This document shows, in pieces, positions 37,407 through 60,671 of a stretch of 64,000 nucleotides of DNA. The stretch is from Acidimicrobiia bacterium (GTDB lineage Bacteria; Actinomycetota; Acidimicrobiia; Spongiisociales; UBA5794): contig JAOZRW010000005.1 of the NCBI GenBank assembly GCA_029939995.1, positions 8,730 through 72,729 on the forward strand. Direction: 5' to 3'. The notes below the pieces were generated by a model, which was given only the letters and a program-made list of their open reading frames with translations, searched no databases and was not told where the DNA came from. Every line of letters begins with the position of its first letter. The first letter of the stretch is position 1. Position numbers and translations under genes: made by a program.

Positions 37407-38518
37407 CCGATCCACTCGAATCCGACGCCGGCGGCGCGGCGATCCCGAAGGCACCCAAGACACCGATGTGGAGGCGCCTGCTCCAAACCGGTGTCACGAT
37501 CGCGGTGCTCGCGCTGGTCTTCGGCTTCGTTCTCCCGAAACTGGCCGACTACGGAACCGTCCTGGACCTCGTCGGGGACATCTCCACGGGCCAGTGGGCC
37601 GTGCTGGCCGTCTCGGCGGGGTGGTTCCTCGTCGCCTACGTGTTCGTGTTCCTCGCGACCCTGCCCGGGCTGCGATTCCGGGAGGGTTTCGTCGTCCAAA
37701 CGACCGCAACCGCGATCAACAACTCGCTCCCGGCGGGCGGCGCCATCGCTCTCCCGATCACGTACACGCAGTTCCTGTCGTGGGGTTTCACGCCGGAAGC
37801 GGTGACGGCGGCGCTCCTCACCGCCGGAGTGTGGGACCAACTGGCCAGGTTGGCCCTCCCCGTCCTGGCCGTCGCCCTGATCGCTCTCACGGGGGACGCG
37901 ATCTGGTGGATGTGGCTCGTATCGTTCGGCGGCGTCGTGGTCGTCGTCGGTGCCGTTTGGCTCGTCGCTCTCGTGCTCCGTTCGGAGGCTGCCGCGATCG
38001 GTCTGGGCACGTGGCTCGACAAGATCGCCAACTGGGGTCTCCGGAAGATCCATCGCGACCCGGTCGACATGGTCTCCGCCACACTGCAGTTCCGGGACAA
38101 CGTCCGCCACGTCGCCCGGTTCCGTTGGAAGTGGGTGACGATCGCAACGGTCGCGAACCACGCCTCGATGGCGACGCTCTTCTACGCGTCGGTCAGGGCG
38201 GTCGGCATCTCGAGCGCGGACGTGTCGGCTCCCTGGATCCTCCTCGCGTTCTCCCTCGGACGTCTGCTGGTGATGATCCCGGTGAGCCCCGGCGGGCTCG
38301 GCCTCGTCGATCTCGGTTTCATCGGCCTTCTCTCGTTGGGATGGGGGGTCGGCGCCGACGCCGACCTGATCGCGGCGGGCGTGCTGCTCTACCGGGCTCT
38401 GTCGTATCTGCCGCCGATCGCGGTCGGTCTCGGCTCGTGGATCTTCTGGCGGGTCAACCGGAGCTGGCGACGGGATTGGAAGACCGACCGCCGCGGCGAA
38501 GCCCCCACCACCCCCTGA
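37403..38518 (+). CDS. Lysylphosphatidylglycerol-synthase TM-region-like (UPF0104 / flippase-like) membrane protein
   Basis: 372 aa, about 8 TM helices; ATG overlaps the SDR stop (ATGA). Confidence 0.65.
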   Translation: MTDPLESDAGGAAIPKAPKTPMWRRLLQTGVTIAVLALVFGFVLPKLADYGTVLDLVGDISTGQWAVLAVSAGWFLVAYVFVFLATLPGLRFREGFVVQTTATAINNSLPAGGAIALPITYTQFLSWGFTPEAVTAALLTAGVWDQLARLALPVLAVALIALTGDAIWWMWLVSFGGVVVVVGAVWLVALVLRSEAAAIGLGTWLDKIANWGLRKIHRDPVDMVSATLQFRDNVRHVARFRWKWVTIATVANHASMATLFYASVRAVGISSADVSAPWILLAFSLGRLLVMIPVSPGGLGLVDLGFIGLLSLGWGVGADADLIAAGVLLYRALSYLPPIAVGLGSWIFWRVNRSWRRDWKTDRRGEAPTTP

Positions 38519-38639
38519 CGTCACGAACCCAGGGTTCTCTGCGTTGTATATGCCGTCTCCGGCCCGCGGTTCGCGAGGCCGCTCCATACCGCGGGCTCAG
38601 GACGTCAAATAGGGCGCAGAGAACCCTGGGTTCGTGACG
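38519..38639. repeat. 121-bp palindromic repeat element, copy 1
   Basis: Perfect 25-bp terminal inverted repeats CGTCACGAACCCAGGGTTCTCTGCG / CGCAGAGAACCCTGGGTTCGTGACG, each containing the 13-bp palindrome GAACCC(A/T)GGGTTC; begins 1 nt after a TGA stop, between convergent genes. Confidence 0.85.
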
Positions 38640-38647
38640 GGGTGGGG

Positions 38648-39202
38648 TTAGAAGATCGCGGCGATGACGATCGACACGGCCTGCTGCAGGGCGATCCACA
38701 CGACCCAGCCGCCGAGCGCGGTGCCGATCGCGCGACCGGTGGTGAAGTCCAGGCCTTCGCGGAGAGCGACCACCGACGCCGCCAGCACCCACACGGCGGC
38801 AACCGGACCGAGGAACGGGATGATGCCGATGACCCGCGGCGCCTGGGCGAACCCCAACACGCGCAGCATCTCCCCCATGTCGGTCGTTCCCCGGAAGATC
38901 CGGGTTCCGATCAACGACGTCGTGGCGGCCCACACGATCCAACCGCCGACGGCGAGCACGACGCCGGCCCCGACCATGAAGAGGACACCGCCGTCGCTCG
39001 GGATCGGGAAGTCACCGGGTCCGAGCCACCGCCTGATGGAGTTCCAAAGGTCCTCGCCGACGGTGTTCTCGTACCCGATCCAGGATCCGACGGCGGCGAG
39101 CGCATTGGCGAGCACGACCACGCCGAACGCCTGGAGGTTCAGCGCCGGGGCGTGCTCGGCGTGATTGAAGAACGCAACGTCGAGCGATGCCGCTTTGATC
39201 AT
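38648..39202 (-). CDS. Yip1-family membrane protein
   Basis: About 184 aa from MIKAASLDVAFF...; five TM segments with the Yip1 domain pattern. Confidence 0.6.
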   Translation of the reverse strand: MIKAASLDVAFFNHAEHAPALNLQAFGVVVLANALAAVGSWIGYENTVGEDLWNSIRRWLGPGDFPIPSDGGVLFMVGAGVVLAVGGWIVWAATTSLIGTRIFRGTTDMGEMLRVLGFAQAPRVIGIIPFLGPVAAVWVLAASVVALREGLDFTTGRAIGTALGGWVVWIALQQAVSIVIAAIF

Positions 39203-49990: not shown

Positions 49991-51438
49991 TCAAGGTTTC
50001 CCGACGCGCACTGCTGAAGCTCGATCGCATCGACATGCCGGCTCGTGATCCGCTCGAGCGGGCCACCTGCTTCGATGAGGTCAACATCGGGCTCACCCCG
50101 GAAGAAGCGACCGTCGAAGCGATGCGGTGTCTGCAGTGCAAGACGCCGACATGCATCGACGGCTGCCCGGTGAACATCCAGATCGATCAGTTCATCGATC
50201 GCGTCGCCGTGGGTGACATCCGGGGGGCCGCCGACGTCATCCGGATGGACAGCCTCCTCCCGGCGATCTGTGGACGGGTGTGCCCGCAGGAGGCGCAGTG
50301 CGAAGGTGCCTGCGTCCTCGACAAGAAGCACAAGCCGATCGCCATCGGGCATCTCGAGCGCTACGTTGCCGACACGATCCGCAACTACGGGCTCGAACCG
50401 CCGGTCGAGCCGGTCGAGCCGAGCGGCAAGAGCGTCGCGATCGTCGGGAGCGGACCGGCGGGTCTCGCGTGCGCCGCCGACCTCGCCAAGAGTGGCCACC
50501 GGGTGCGCGTCTTCGAGGCACTCCACAAGCCGGGCGGCGTGCTCATCTACGGCATCCCCGAGTTCCGCTTGCCGAAGAGCATCGTCCAGTCCGAGATCGA
50601 CGGGCTCAAGGAACTCGGCGTCGAGTTCGAGATGAACGCGATCATCGGCCGGACGATCACCATGGAAGAGCTCCTCACCGAGGAGGGATTCGACGCCGTC
50701 TTCGTGGGAGTCGGCGCGGGGCTGCCCCGGTTCCTCAACATCGAAGGAGAGAACCTGATCGGTGTCTACTCGGCGAACGAGTTCCTCACACGCGTCAACC
50801 TGATGGGGGCGTTCCACGAGAACACGGAGACGCCGATCCTCGACCTCACCGGCAAGCGGGTCGTCGTGTTCGGCGGTGGAAACACGGCCATGGACAGCGC
50901 CCGGACGCCGCTCCGTCTCGGAGCAGGAGAGGTTCGCGTGGCCTACCGCCGCACCGAGGCCGAGATGCCCGCCAGGGTCGAGGAGATCCACCATGCGAAG
51001 GAGGAGGGGATCGTGTTCGACTTCCTCGTCTCGCCGCTCGAGCTGCTCGGCAACGACGAGGGATGGCTGACCGGTGTGCGGTTCCAGCGCATGGAACTCG
51101 GTGAGCCCGACGACTCGGGCCGCCGCCGACCGATCCCGATCGAAGGCGACGTCTTCGACCTCGATGCGGATGTGGCGATCGTCGCGATCGGCAACTCCCC
51201 GAACCCCCTGCTGCCCGCAACCGAGCCGCATCTCAAGCAGACGCGGTGGGGCACGCTCGAGGTCGACGAGACGACCGGCCGTACGACGATGCGGGGCGTG
51301 TTCGCCGGTGGAGACATCACGACGGGTGGAGCGACCGTGATCCTGGCGATGGGCGCCGGCCGGGTCGCCGCGGCGTCGATCAACGAGTACCTCGAGACGG
51401 GCGTCTGGTCGGAAACCCCCGAACCGGCCCTCACCTAA
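49987..51438 (+). CDS. nfnB: NfnB / GltD-like NADPH-dependent glutamate-synthase small-subunit-family oxidoreductase (two [4Fe-4S] + FAD)
   Basis: CLQCKTPTCIDGCPV and CGRVCPQEAQCEGAC Fe-S motifs, two Rossmann GxGxxG (IVGSGPAGLACA, VFGGGNTAMD); start overlaps the nfnA stop (ATGA). Confidence 0.85.
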   Translation: MIKVSRRALLKLDRIDMPARDPLERATCFDEVNIGLTPEEATVEAMRCLQCKTPTCIDGCPVNIQIDQFIDRVAVGDIRGAADVIRMDSLLPAICGRVCPQEAQCEGACVLDKKHKPIAIGHLERYVADTIRNYGLEPPVEPVEPSGKSVAIVGSGPAGLACAADLAKSGHRVRVFEALHKPGGVLIYGIPEFRLPKSIVQSEIDGLKELGVEFEMNAIIGRTITMEELLTEEGFDAVFVGVGAGLPRFLNIEGENLIGVYSANEFLTRVNLMGAFHENTETPILDLTGKRVVVFGGGNTAMDSARTPLRLGAGEVRVAYRRTEAEMPARVEEIHHAKEEGIVFDFLVSPLELLGNDEGWLTGVRFQRMELGEPDDSGRRRPIPIEGDVFDLDADVAIVAIGNSPNPLLPATEPHLKQTRWGTLEVDETTGRTTMRGVFAGGDITTGGATVILAMGAGRVAAASINEYLETGVWSETPEPALT

Positions 51439-51440
51439 CC

Positions 51441-51561
51441 CGTCACGAACCCAGGGTTCTCTGCGTTGTATATGCCGTCTCCGGCCCGCGGTTCGCGAGG
51501 CCGCTCCATACCGCGGGCTCAGGACGTCAAATAGGGCGCAGAGAACCCTGGGTTCGTGACG
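51441..51561. repeat. 121-bp palindromic repeat element, copy 2 (identical to copy 1)
   Basis: Same sequence as 38519..38639 over its full length as read by eye; begins 2 nt after the nfnB TAA stop, between convergent genes. Confidence 0.85.
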
Positions 51562-51565
51562 GGAG

Positions 51566-51985
51566 CTATTGGAGGGTTCGGAGGAAGGCCACGATGTCGT
51601 TCAGATCGTCGTCGGTGAGCCTCGGGTTGCCCCCGTACCGCGGCATGGCCACACCCGTCTCGTTGTCCGGATCGTTGTTCGCCCGGCCTTCCTTGATGAA
51701 CTCGACCAGGTCGGCGTCGCTCTCGCTCTGGATGAATTCGCTGTCGAAGAACGATGGGCCGAGACCGCTCACACCGTTGAAGTCGGTGCCGTGACAGGCA
51801 GCGCACGACTCGACGACGAGCTGCTTGCCGTGGTTGACCGCCGGATCGGAGCTCTCAGGCACCGTCTCGGAGGTGGATCCACCGCCACATGCAGCGGCCA
51901 CCAGGGCGATGACGACACCGCCGAGGATCAAGGCCGAACGGGTCCGAATCCGCGAGAACCCCACCGATGTCTGACGTCCCATCAT
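51566..51985 (-). CDS. Mono-heme class I cytochrome c lipoprotein
   Basis: Start MMGRQTS... with GGGAGG RBS; lipobox LVAAAC; single CAACH heme motif and a downstream Met ligand region. Confidence 0.7.
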   Translation of the reverse strand: MMGRQTSVGFSRIRTRSALILGGVVIALVAAACGGGSTSETVPESSDPAVNHGKQLVVESCAACHGTDFNGVSGLGPSFFDSEFIQSESDADLVEFIKEGRANNDPDNETGVAMPRYGGNPRLTDDDLNDIVAFLRTLQ

Positions 51986-57879: not shown

Positions 57880-58614
57880 TCAACCGCCGAGGCTCTCCCG
57901 GTAGAGACCCTCGTAGTGGTCGACCATCGCGGCCGCCCTTCGCGCAGCGATCTGCTCGGGCGAGTCCGCCCATGCTGCTTCATGCAACGCCGGCAACTCC
58001 GCGCCGCGCAGGGCCGCGATTCCCTCGGGCGTCCCTGCGAACTGCGCTGCGTACAAGGCCGGCAGTTCGGCGAACCGCAACTGGGCGATGTCCACGGCGG
58101 ACGGTTCGTACGCCGCGGCATGCAACGCCGGCAACTCCGCAGCCCGTGCGCCTGCGATGCCCTCCGGTGTCGCGAGCCACTCGGCTCGGAAGTGGTCGAC
58201 CATGGCTTCGGCCCTCATGTAGGCGATACCTTCAGGGGACGAAAGCCAGCCGGCCTCGTGGAGAGCCGGCAGCTCGGCGGCCCGCATGACGGCGACGCCT
58301 TCCGGTGTGGAGGCGAACCCGGTCTCGTAGAGACCCGGCAGTTCCGCGGCTCGCAGTGCGGCCACGTTGGCCGGATCGGCGAGCCAGCGGGATTCCTCGT
58401 AGGCCACCATGTCGGCCGCCCGGATCGAAGCGATGTCCGACGCACTCAACGTGTTGGCTGTTTCATTCGGGTTCAACACGAGATAGGCGATCCATCCGGC
58501 GACGACACCGATGACGACGGCTCCCAACACGCTCGCGACGCGTCGACCCGTGCTGAGTCTCCGTGCCGGGCGCGTAATCGCCGTGTCTCCGATCTGATGT
58601 TGGAGTGTTCTCAC
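57880..58614 (-). CDS. Membrane-anchored tandem-repeat protein (about 8 repeats of about 20 aa, core AELPALHEAxWxxSPEGIA)
   Basis: GTG start with AGGAGG RBS; N-terminal TM helix, then degenerate repeats ...AALRAAELPGLYETGFASTPEGVAVMRAAELPALHEAGWLSSPEGIA... Confidence 0.5.
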   Translation of the reverse strand: MRTLQHQIGDTAITRPARRLSTGRRVASVLGAVVIGVVAGWIAYLVLNPNETANTLSASDIASIRAADMVAYEESRWLADPANVAALRAAELPGLYETGFASTPEGVAVMRAAELPALHEAGWLSSPEGIAYMRAEAMVDHFRAEWLATPEGIAGARAAELPALHAAAYEPSAVDIAQLRFAELPALYAAQFAGTPEGIAALRGAELPALHEAAWADSPEQIAARRAAAMVDHYEGLYRESLGG

Positions 58615-58707
58615 GTCCGCCTCCTTCCGATTGCTCCGGCGGTCTGCCCCGAACATCGCGTACCGTCCTCAAGGAAGCCTGAAGACCCGCTCTAGTTCCG
58701 CTCTACC

Positions 58708-58821
58708 CGACACGAACCCTGGGTTCTCTGCGTCCTATGTGCCGTCTCCGGCCCGCGGTTCGCCGGGCGCGTTGAACCGCGGGCCGGAGACGGCACATAC
58801 GGGGTCACGAACCCTGGGTAT
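58708..58821. repeat. Palindromic repeat element, copy 3 (divergent variant with a perfect 24-bp internal hairpin)
   Basis: Left end CGACACGAACCCTGGGTTCTCTGCG (2 substitutions vs copies 1-2), shared core TGCCGTCTCCGGCCCGCGGTTCGC; internal perfect inverted repeat TGTGCCGTCTCCGGCCCGCGGTTC / GAACCGCGGGCCGGAGACGGCACA; right end CACGAACCCTGGGTA. Confidence 0.75.
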
Positions 58822-58847
58822 GGCGATCGGGGGGATACGCTTGCCGC

Positions 58848-60671
58848 ATGTCCTCCCCCTCCTTTCGGAACGTCGCGCTGATCGCGCACGTCGATCACGG
58901 CAAAACCACCCTCGTCGATGCCATGCTCGGCGCCACCGGTGTGTTCGGTTCGCACGAGACCCGCGTCGATCGGGTCATGGATTCGAGCGATCAGGAGCGC
59001 GAACGCGGTATCACCATCCTCGCCAAGGCGGCGTCGGTGACCTGGAGGGGCACGAAGATCAATCTCGTGGACACTCCGGGGCACGCCGACTTCGGCGGTG
59101 AGGTCGAACGCGCCCTCACGCTCGTCGACGGTGTCCTCCTCCTCGTCGACGCGGCGGAAGGCCCGATGCCGCAGACGCGATACGTCCTGTCGAAGGCGCT
59201 CGACCAGGGTCTCCCCGCGGTCGTCGTGATCAACAAGGTCGATCGATCGGACGCTCGCATCGACGAGGTCGTCGACGAGATCTACCAGCTGTTCTTCGAT
59301 CTGGACGCCGAGGACCGGCACATCGAGTTCCCCATCATCTCCTCGATCGCCCGCTTCGGGCGCTCGATGGTCGGCACCGGGATCCCGGGAGAGGACACGG
59401 ATCTCGCCCCGCTCCTCGACGCGATCGTCGAGACGATCCCCGAACCGTCGGGCGACCCCACGGCCCCGCTCCAGGCGCTCGTGACCAACCTCGACGCCTC
59501 CGAGTATCTGGGTCGGCTCGCCATCGGGAGGGTCGTGCAGGGGACGTTGAAAGCCGGAACCCAGGTCGCGTTGTGCCATGCGAATGACGAAGAGCCCCCG
59601 ATCAAGCGGCGGCTCAGCCAACTGATGGGTTTCGAAAATCTCGGCCGGGTCGAGGTCGACGACCGCGTCGCGGGGGACCTCTTCGTCGTCGCCGGTTTCC
59701 CCGAGGTCGAGATCGGAGACACGATCGCCGACGCGATGGACCCGCAGCCGCTTCCGCGGCTTCAGGTCGACGAGCCGGTGCTGCGCATGACGTTCGGCGT
59801 GAACACATCACCTCTCTCCGGAAGAGACGGCCGCTTCGTGACGTCCCGCCAGATCAAGGAGCGTCTCGATCGCGAAGTGCTGGGCAACGTCTCGATCCGT
59901 ATCGGGGCAACCTCCTCCCCGGAGATCATCGAGGTCGCCGGGCGGGGCGAGCTTCAGCTCGCCGTCTTGATCGAATCCATGCGCCGGGAAGGCTACGAGC
60001 TCCAGGTCTCCCGACCCGAGGTGATCATCCGCGAGGTCGACGGACGTCCTCACGAACCGGTCGAGCGGGCCGTCGTCGACGTGCCGAACGAGCACGTCGG
60101 CACCGTCACCCAGGCGGCGGCGCCGCGCAAGGGGCAGATCACGGATCTCCGCCCGGGTGACACCGGTCGGACCATCGTGACGCTGACCGCCCCGGCACGC
60201 GGACTCCTCGGTTTCCGCTCGCTCCTCATGACCGCCACCCGCGGCACCGCCCTCATCCATCAGCATCACGCCGGCTGGATGCCCTGGGCGGGAGAGTTGC
60301 CCCATCGCCAGGGCGGAGCCATGGTCGCCGACCGGATCGGGACGTCGACGGGGTTCGCCCTCGACAACCTCCAGAAACGCGGCGAGCTGTTCATCGGCCC
60401 CAACACCGACGTCTATGAGGGGATGATCATCGGCGAAGCGTCCCGTCCCGAGGACATGCAGGTCAATCCGACCAAGACCAAGCAACTCACGAACATCCGG
60501 ACACACTCCACCGACGAGGCCATCAAGCTGAAGCCACCGCGGGAGATGACCCTCGAACTCGCGATCGAATGGATCTCCGGTGACGAACTCGTCGAGATCA
60601 CGCCGAAGGCTATCCGCGTGCGGAAGCGCTACCTGACCGAGGGCGAACGCAAACGACGGAAGAAGCTCTGA
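58848..60671 (+). CDS. typA: Translational GTPase TypA/BipA
   Basis: [40 protein letters not shown]; 607 aa. Confidence 0.95.

Follow-up and report, generated by a model that had tools for sequence, protein, structure and literature searches.

How do identical palindromic elements come to stand 13 kb apart in a bacterial genome, and what keeps them identical? The question is raised by a 64,000-nucleotide stretch of DNA, here called the window, from an Acidimicrobiia bacterium (assembly GCA_029939995.1, contig JAOZRW010000005.1, positions 8,730 to 72,729 of the forward strand). An initial annotation, made from the sequence, had noted three copies of a palindromic repeat of about 120 bp (copies 1 and 2 identical, copy 3 remodelled), and had weighed recent mobility, in the manner of a miniature inverted-repeat transposable element (MITE), against selection on a protein-binding site or a transcript-end structure. 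Our study places these copies in a large intergenic repeat family which is restricted to a clade of uncultured marine Acidimicrobiia; we think it probable that this family is of the REP/BIME or REPIN kind and is served in trans by a candidate partner nuclease. The units are non-coding and non-autonomous, and directly adjoin the edge of a gene, which is marked by a stop codon or by a -10 box. Their sites persist between species and their sequences evolve in concert within each genome, and in related genomes the same units bracket a single gene for a predicted nuclease.

A repeat family built from half-units

A scan for the exact 20-mer terminus of the element, with one genome per species, returned 43 loci, 40 of which lie in the metagenome-assembled genome (MAG) of Acidimicrobiia bacterium bin30015 (JANTHO01) and one in a second Acidimicrobiia MAG; the two lone matches in unrelated bacteria look like chance. 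The JANTHO01 MAG comes from a relative of the window organism that is distinct from it (82-89% nucleotide identity across syntenic stretches). It contains the exact terminus about 58 times and holds 61-63 units in some 45 clusters, about 27 of them singles and about 18 inverted doublets. Because the terminus is genome-specific, the exact 20-mer has zero matches in the JGI metagenomes and viral contigs; a relaxed pattern for the JGI metagenomes, GAACCCWGGGTTC-N20-30-GCCCGCGG, recovered at least 120 contigs holding at least 225 units; for many of them synteny with the MAG or the window was evident, at a nucleotide identity of 69-83%. The view of the copies as members of a multi-copy, MITE- or REP-like family is thus borne out, whereas a private operator or terminator of three loci is not.

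The repeating module is a half-unit of about 57 nt, composed of a 6-nt leader (CGWCAC or CGCYRC), the 13-bp palindrome GAACCCWGGGTTC, a TATA-centred mini-palindrome, and GCCCGCGG with a few further bases. In the MAG, where all ends were read, it takes the form CGACAC-GAACCCAGGGTTC-TCTG-CGCCCTATATGGCG-TCCCGGGCCCGCGG-(TTCG/WATGG). Over all data the units form 183 clusters, comprising 84 singles, 58 inverted doublets, 35 direct arrays with a period of about 60 nt and 6 mixed clusters. The doublets, elements of 109-135 nt, show a consistent left/right asymmetry and have their outer ends facing outward; not one of the 183 clusters contains an inverted pair with its outer ends inward. Within every unit conservation is highest in the 13-mer, which was never found without the rest of the unit in the approximately 1.3 Mb examined.

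Within a single unit of one MAG locus (L026, 1635-1725), a 35-nt sub-unit consisting of leader, core and TATA mini-palindrome is doubled head-to-tail, an internal duplication which shows that the repeat unit is itself modular. A long-doublet subtype (L050, L064, L079, L089, L095, L104, L112, L125 and L127) has an arm, GCCCGCGGAATG, whose pairing with CATTCTGTGGGC depends on two G·U (G·T) pairs, which form on one strand only. On the other strand they would be A·C mismatches, and the asymmetry is recurrent despite the lack of a transcription-strand bias. A search of the whole window against Rfam 15 gave nothing at the gathering score; relaxed matches, far below gathering, were generic long hairpins aligned with miRNA precursors and were rejected. 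Literature searches on the 13-mer, on DUF559/MTES_1575 with inverted repeats, and on REP or MITE elements in Acidimicrobiia found no description.

A nuclease gene bracketed by inverted units

A single gene encoding a protein of about 305 aa recurs between a pair of inverted units. The example at locus L008 (1533-2483, 316 aa) has weak Pfam matches to AbiEi_4, MTES_1575 and DUF559; PF18741 matches the MAG protein at E = 4e-7 and 30.4 bits, under the 38.2-bit cut-off, and is a precomputed match of almost every homolog. All eight homologs (8/8) from the repeat-derived loci have units on their flanks. Homologs were then retrieved by protein, and their contigs fetched, to remove ascertainment bias, and the lineages obtained in this way (P0139, P0163, P0193, P0211, P0235, P0237 and P0239, with 50-72% identity, and 52-72% to the query) were all bracketed by inverted units (7/7). 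The bracketing repeats are 55-60 nt long and 79-90% complementary, and enclose one gene in a module of about 1.15 kb. This module is seen in five flank contexts (sigma70-CBS/DUF87, sigma70/OpuAC, serA/pgpA, proC/Macro and ADH/FtsH), among which homology sets in and breaks off precisely at the outer unit ends, and the core co-varies with the nuclease protein (GAACCCWGGGTTC, ...GGGCTC and GAGCCCTGGGCTC). Dozens of homologs are known only on contigs of 1.0-1.3 kb, equal to the gene and its two flanking units, a length that points to flanking repeats which systematically break metagenome assemblies. The initial annotation's remark that no transposase lies nearby holds for the window, but in related genomes the same units are the terminal inverted repeats of this gene.

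The DUF559-type motif D...ExD...H is invariant in the homologs. In the AlphaFold model (mean confidence, pLDDT, 89.9) the first 200 residues or so match AbiEi (6y8q, E = 2.6e-5), and the C-terminal domain matches NGO0050 (3hrl) and, equally well, the catalytic domain of the homing endonuclease I-Bth0305I (3r3p), the target TM-score being 0.78 in each case. Fold search alone was informative here; a sequence search of the PDB found no relative. From the model, the protein is predicted to join an AbiEi-like winged helix-turn-helix (wHTH) to a Vsr/DUF559-type PD-(D/E)xK nuclease; the product of the bracketed module is a nuclease class not known for transposition.

Between the upstream unit and the nuclease start lies a motif, GATCRGACCTCTGG (L008:1505-1518, and likewise in L082, L083, L101, L168 and L178), which is present in two flank contexts and nowhere else, and may be the gene's own promoter or operator. 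As a separate observation, the centre of the core (38525-38537 in the window, and all other cores) is CCWGG, the sequence of Dcm methylation and Vsr repair, and the partner protein is Vsr-like; this is a lead only, and the combination of a CCWGG core with a Vsr-like nuclease domain could be coincidence.

Persistent sites and concerted evolution

Orthologous comparisons found a unit in 31 of 39 cases, in a sample biased to occupancy, often with a change of form between single, two or three tandem units, and inverted doublet. Both occupied and empty sites are present in the unbiased loci L044-L046. At 30 variable positions outside the search pattern, the identity of units was 0.554 for orthologs, 0.798 for paralogs of the same genome and 0.522 for random foreign units; the flanks are 77.6% identical. 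Unit sequences are genome-specific, which is concerted evolution, and this homogenisation within the genome best accounts for the 100% identity of copies 1 and 2. The initial annotation had taken that identity as an argument for recent mobility or strong selection; homogenisation is a better reading than simple recent insertion, since orthologous units resemble one another no more than they resemble random foreign units. Its proposed check for target-site duplications gave none at the junctions of doublets, the window copies included, or of gene modules. The ends are uneven, ragged by 0-12 C/G-rich bases.

Position at gene boundaries

Stop trinucleotides peak at exactly -9 from the core, where the 6-nt leader is all that lies between stop and core. 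This holds for 43 of 171 metagenome units and 14 of 61 units of the MAG, against a background of 1-3 at each other offset. At the loci L001-L043 of the MAG and in the window, the unit-abutting stop is TAA in 17 of 24 cases, against 11 of 289 for other genes at the same loci (TGA 210, TAG 68, TAA 11; odds ratio 61, p = 1.2e-15). A +4 = C context was rejected as a sufficient cause, since other genes with C after the stop have TAA in only 8 of 107 cases. The excess may be due to co-conversion of the abutting stop, or to selection against read-through into the unit. The base preceding a unit-abutting stop is almost always C, and the flank CCTCTAA is common to five independent MAG loci.

At many other unit ends the sequence runs outward through a G-rich spacer to a TANNNT box, with a start codon 6-9 nt beyond it (for typA, TACGCT-N6-ATG). 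The boxes TAGCCT, TAGGGT, TAGGAT and TACGCT were seen in the window and at many MAG ends, 6-9 nt ahead of start codons and 2-15 nt outside the unit. Read from sequence, this pattern suggests that leaderless transcription is widespread and that promoters sit directly against the repeats. By context, the clusters over all data (n = 135) are 54 convergent, 65 co-directional and 16 divergent, and those of the MAG only (n = 42) are 13, 15 and 14, respectively. The genes flanking the units are functionally unrelated.

The three copies in the window

The exact 13-mer GAACCCWGGGTTC occurs five times in the window against 0.08 expected, and a truncated sixth copy, GAACCCTGGGTAT, lies at 58809. Copies 1 and 2 (38519-38641 and 51441-51563) are identical over 123 nt rather than the 121 first described, and the perfect 25-nt terminal inverted repeat CGTCACGAACCCAGGGTTCTCTGCG is the same in both (38519-38543/38615-38639 and 51441-51465/51537-51561). 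The palindrome of copy 2 is two bases longer, CCCGTCACG...CGTGACGGG (51439-51563). Copy 3 (58706-58821) has the left end and core of the other copies, as the initial annotation claimed, with 65% ungapped identity; its right end proved to be a truncated copy, and its perfect inner stem, given as 24 bp, measures 26 bp. A gapped alignment of the three has a mean column identity of 85%. Being doublets, all three copies fold into one long hairpin each (-95.2 and -86.7 kcal/mol, with z = -12.5 and -8.3). The features of the three sites are as follows.

38516-38518, forward strand: stop TGA of the LPG_synthase_TM gene, directly against copy 1
38519-38641: copy 1, an inverted doublet of two half-units of about 57 nt, which occupies the entire spacer between convergent genes
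38519-38543, forward strand: left terminal repeat of copy 1, CGTCAC + core GAACCCAGGGTTC (38525-38537) + TCTGCG
38615-38639, reverse strand: right terminal repeat of copy 1, with core GAACCCTGGGTTC at 38621-38633
38648-38650, reverse strand: stop TAA of the Yip1 gene, 8 nt from the end of the 121-nt element and 6 nt from that of the 123-nt stretch, across a G-rich spacer
51436-51438, forward strand: stop TAA of the GltD-like gene, 2 nt ahead of copy 2
51439-51563: copy 2, an inverted doublet; 51441-51563 equals copy 1, and the palindrome reaches CCC...GGG
51447-51459, forward strand: left core of copy 2, GAACCCAGGGTTC
51543-51555, reverse strand: right core of copy 2, GAACCCTGGGTTC
51566-51568, reverse strand: stop TAG of the cytochrome c gene, 4 nt past the 121-nt element and 2 nt past the 123-nt stretch
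58706-58821: copy 3, a remodelled doublet in a divergent region upstream of typA, with a truncated right end (GAACCCTGGGTAT, 58809-58821)
58736-58761, forward strand: left inner arm of copy 3, perfect over 26 nt, with the loop at 58762-58773
58774-58799, reverse strand: right inner arm of copy 3, perfect over 26 nt
58836-58850, forward strand: putative -10-like box TACGCT (TANNNT), 6 nt and the typA ATG, 14 nt downstream of copy 3

The gene contexts had been described correctly: copy 1 lies between the stops of the LPG_synthase_TM (forward) and Yip1 (reverse) genes, copy 2 between the GltD-like (forward) and cytochrome c (reverse) genes, and copy 3 between the starts of a gene for a 258-aa protein (reverse) and typA/bipA (forward). 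The statement that copies 1 and 2 start 1-2 nt after a stop codon is right for copy 2, which begins 2 nt after TAA, but not for copy 1, which follows TGA with 0 nt between. In relatives without an abutting unit, the GltD-like stop position is TGA or TAG. The 258-aa protein (57880-58656, reverse strand) contains repeated 'AAELPALHEAxWLxxPEGIA'-like segments and has no Pfam match, and its gene is conserved beside typA in relatives L044 and L046.

The histories of the three sites differ in detail. The copy 1 site is occupied by a doublet at JANTHO01 locus L027, by a unit in L069, by doublets of other subtypes in L050/L156 and by a degenerate half-unit in L044, and no empty site was seen among these relatives. 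At the copy 2 site there is a degenerate half-unit in L044, an empty 44-nt spacer in L046 and no unit in L045; in place of a unit, L045 (11500-11625) has tandem heptamers, GCTGTCA, GCTGTCC and GCTGTTC. The copy 3 site carries an ordinary doublet at JANTHO01 locus L021 and a half-unit in L045, both of which have the truncated end of copy 3, GAACCCTGGGTATGG, and is unoccupied or otherwise filled in L044 and L046. The perfected stem of copy 3 plausibly arose from homogenisation, through template switching in a quasi-palindrome. The initial annotation had held that these copies alone, conserved in synteny in related species, would speak for a structured terminator or operator; the sites of copies 1 and 3 are indeed occupied in relatives, but the copies belong to a large family.

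A nuclease model and its alternatives

We infer that the nuclease would recognise the palindromes in trans and make breaks, which would be repaired from other copies and thus lead to gene conversion. Such repair would interconvert doublets and singles and permit occasional spread, and imprecise repair would occasionally leave half-units; half-unit breakpoints lie at the doublet centre. The nuclease gene would move along with its two units, in a relationship analogous to that of RAYT and REPIN, or of a homing endonuclease and its target. More tentatively, and with less confidence than we place in the reading as a whole, the protein might be a new repeat-associated enzyme, either a domesticated homing-type nuclease or a non-canonical transposase, recognising the CCWGG-centred palindrome.

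Several points weigh against this model. The TAA association and the exact adjacency to stops need extra assumptions in it. The metagenome loci were retrieved via the repeat, which inflates occupancy rates; no de novo insertion or excision was seen, nor any clean filled/empty pair with a defined junction, so that true mobility of the units is hypothetical. The nuclease gene is apparently single-copy and keeps its synteny inside each clade, so that not all of the seven lineages count as independent, and the first two flank contexts both adjoin a sigma-70 gene. The 64-kb window itself holds no AbiEi/DUF559-type gene, and the nuclease gene could be a passenger that moved into, or with, a pre-existing doublet.

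The units might instead be TRIT-like transcript-end elements, acting as bidirectional U-tract-independent terminators, 3'-end stabilisers or modulators of translation termination, and conserved by selection. The very strong hairpins, the narrow distance to stop codons shared with TRIT (PMC3152330), the enrichment between convergent genes (54/135 clusters, 40%, against about 25% expected), the long-term occupation of the same sites and the G·U pairing of some long doublets on one strand only would all suit such a role. We consider it unlikely, however, as the long hairpin is missing from the 84 singles and 35 direct arrays, 12% of clusters lie in divergent promoter regions without a gene 3' end (14/42 in the MAG), as does copy 3 of the window, and relatives cope with empty sites. 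No U-tract follows the hairpins and copy 1 has 0 terminator-like sites; co-directional pairs show no preferred unit orientation (24 vs 17) and no better folding of the sense strand (12 vs 9). For these reasons a dedicated RNA-level terminator role is unsupported, though doublets between convergent genes may have one. Functional selection also predicts neither genome-wide homogenisation nor units that bracket a nuclease gene. The other functional proposal, that the units are operators for a transcription factor binding GAACCCWGGGTTC and their loci a regulon, draws on the conservation of the 13-mer and on the many ends that have, 2-15 nt downstream, the -10-like box of an apparently leaderless gene, typA among them. 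It is very improbable: the 13-mer does not occur apart from the unit in about 1.3 Mb of sequence, most copies follow stop codons or lie between convergent genes, and the flanking genes are unrelated in function. The actinobacterial LexA box has N4 spacing. The CGAAC-N5-GTTCG arrangement of the units is unlike it, and a LexA box was set aside on this ground and because just one half of the extended palindrome is present in most units. The protein-binding and transcript-end readings offered by the initial annotation thus lack support.

Its MITE-like label is partly right. A classical MITE, the internally deleted derivative of a DDE-type insertion sequence moved by cut-and-paste with target-site duplications, would explain the perfect 25-nt terminal inverted repeats, the small size, the many copies and the identity of copies 13 kb apart, and 'CTA' is frequent just outside the ends, a hint of a TA-containing target. 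Yet no more than about 6 of 19 doublets have TA on either flank together, and a TA/YTAR target-site duplication model was rejected because of this proportion (about one third) and because the flanking motifs are inverted, not direct. The missing duplications and ragged ends, the conservation of sites across species, and the half-units and direct arrays, which are not products of cut-and-paste, leave this origin little credence. The roughly 320 kb that surround the MAG copies yielded no multi-copy gene, and no full-length insertion sequence was seen, no general transposase search of the metagenome loci having been made. Strictly defined REPINs, which depend for their mobility on a RAYT (an IS200-like HUH/Y1 transposase) encoded elsewhere in the genome, would match in their doublets and decayed singlets, hairpin, vertical persistence and genome-specific types (PMC3337134). 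A phmmer search with E. coli RayT, however, found nothing at E <= 10 in the six-frame open reading frames of the window, the MAG loci and 856 kb of metagenome contigs. As RAYTs, with genes of about 500 bp, are normally flanked by their own REPINs, one should have been captured, and the unit-flanked gene encodes a predicted PD-(D/E)xK nuclease instead; we regard this explanation, too, as most doubtful. Integron attC sites, dif/Xer sites and CRISPR were ruled out by anatomy (core housekeeping context, no R'/R'' motifs and no unique spacers).

Comparison with known repeat families

The family shares with the REP or palindromic units (PUs) and BIMEs of Enterobacteria, and with the REPIN-RAYT systems of Pseudomonas and others, the occurrence of short extragenic palindromes as singlets, inverted doublets and clusters, their location at gene ends, many copies per genome, vertical persistence and genome-specific types. 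PUs are species-specific, and E. coli REP elements have a conserved 5' GTAG tetranucleotide beside the palindrome. This leader does not seem to be conserved here; GTAG stands outside some nine MAG ends at variable distance, where it coincides with a G-run and the TAG of -10-like boxes, and it is absent from stop-type ends. The units differ further from REP and REPIN in their greater length of 57 nt with three mini-palindromes, in the lack of any RAYT/Y1 found, in the high-GC actinobacterial class of the host and in the strong link to TAA stops. A RAYT gene is single-copy and has repeats of its own type on either side, in a specific association (PMC3337134). The same arrangement of an apparently single-copy gene between its own repeats is seen here, with an enzyme of a different class, AbiEi-wHTH plus Vsr/DUF559-type nuclease as predicted.

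The TRIT elements of Mycobacterium, of which there are about 150 copies, are palindromic, confined to one actinobacterial lineage, mostly bidirectional and set at a very narrow distance from stops (PMC3152330). The present family resembles them in its palindromes, lineage restriction and narrow stop distance; the resemblance is functional only and the family is not a member of TRIT. The two have no sequence relationship, TRIT extends across the stop at about -8 but these units begin immediately behind it, and the family also includes half-units, direct arrays, divergent sites and an associated gene with the same ends. Hairpin MITEs (ERIC/IRU of about 127 bp, Correia/NEMIS, RUP and Nezha) offer a parallel in size (110-135 bp), terminal inverted repeats, whole-element hairpin, intergenic location and the existence of a longer relative that carries a gene between the same ends. 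In contrast to these, the present elements have shown no target-site duplication and no DDE transposase, occupy stable orthologous sites, evolve in concert and are built from a half-unit module. Direct arrays with a period of about 60 nt, intergenic and stop-abutting positions and copy numbers that vary among relatives recall the MIRU of mycobacteria, which are unrelated in sequence and lack the inverted doublets and strongly palindromic cores seen here. The partner protein shares its predicted C-terminal fold (TM-score 0.78) and acidic/His motif with the Vsr-like (EDxHD) homing endonuclease I-Bth0305I and the DUF559 protein NGO0050, and the gene lies in the middle of a doublet as a free-standing or intron-borne homing endonuclease gene lies within its target. 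It differs in the AbiEi-like wHTH fusion and in a putative target that is a dispersed repeat and not a single allele, as predicted from sequence and fold.

The family lies outside REPIN, MITE and TRIT in their strict senses, having no RAYT found, no target-site duplications and no sequence relationship to TRIT. The closest kinds are REP/BIME/REPIN, TRIT and hairpin MITEs, and the best reading is of a new family with a candidate new partner enzyme. We found no description of a DUF559-repeat partnership in the searchable literature; this partnership is the most interesting lead, though unproven.

Implications

Short palindromic families such as REP, BIME and TRIT are common, but how they arise and are maintained is understood only for those with a RAYT transposase. 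The well-delimited family described here, from a poorly studied clade, brings together four quantifiable traits, namely stop-adjacent starts, a 60-fold excess of TAA, stable sites with homogenised sequences and a bracketed nuclease gene, and it opens two questions to direct test: how such repeats remain uniform, and which function AbiEi/DUF559 proteins have. For the annotation of such genomes the units have a practical consequence, as they break metagenome assemblies and create spurious open reading frames, and should be masked. If the proposed partnership is true, nuclease cuts repaired from other copies would explain the concerted evolution, the interconversion of doublets, singles and arrays, the movement of the gene together with its two flanking units and the carrying along of TAA stops. 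It would constitute a second, mechanistically distinct partnership of the REPIN-RAYT type, and would provide the first function for the very widespread actinobacterial 'DUF559' gene class.

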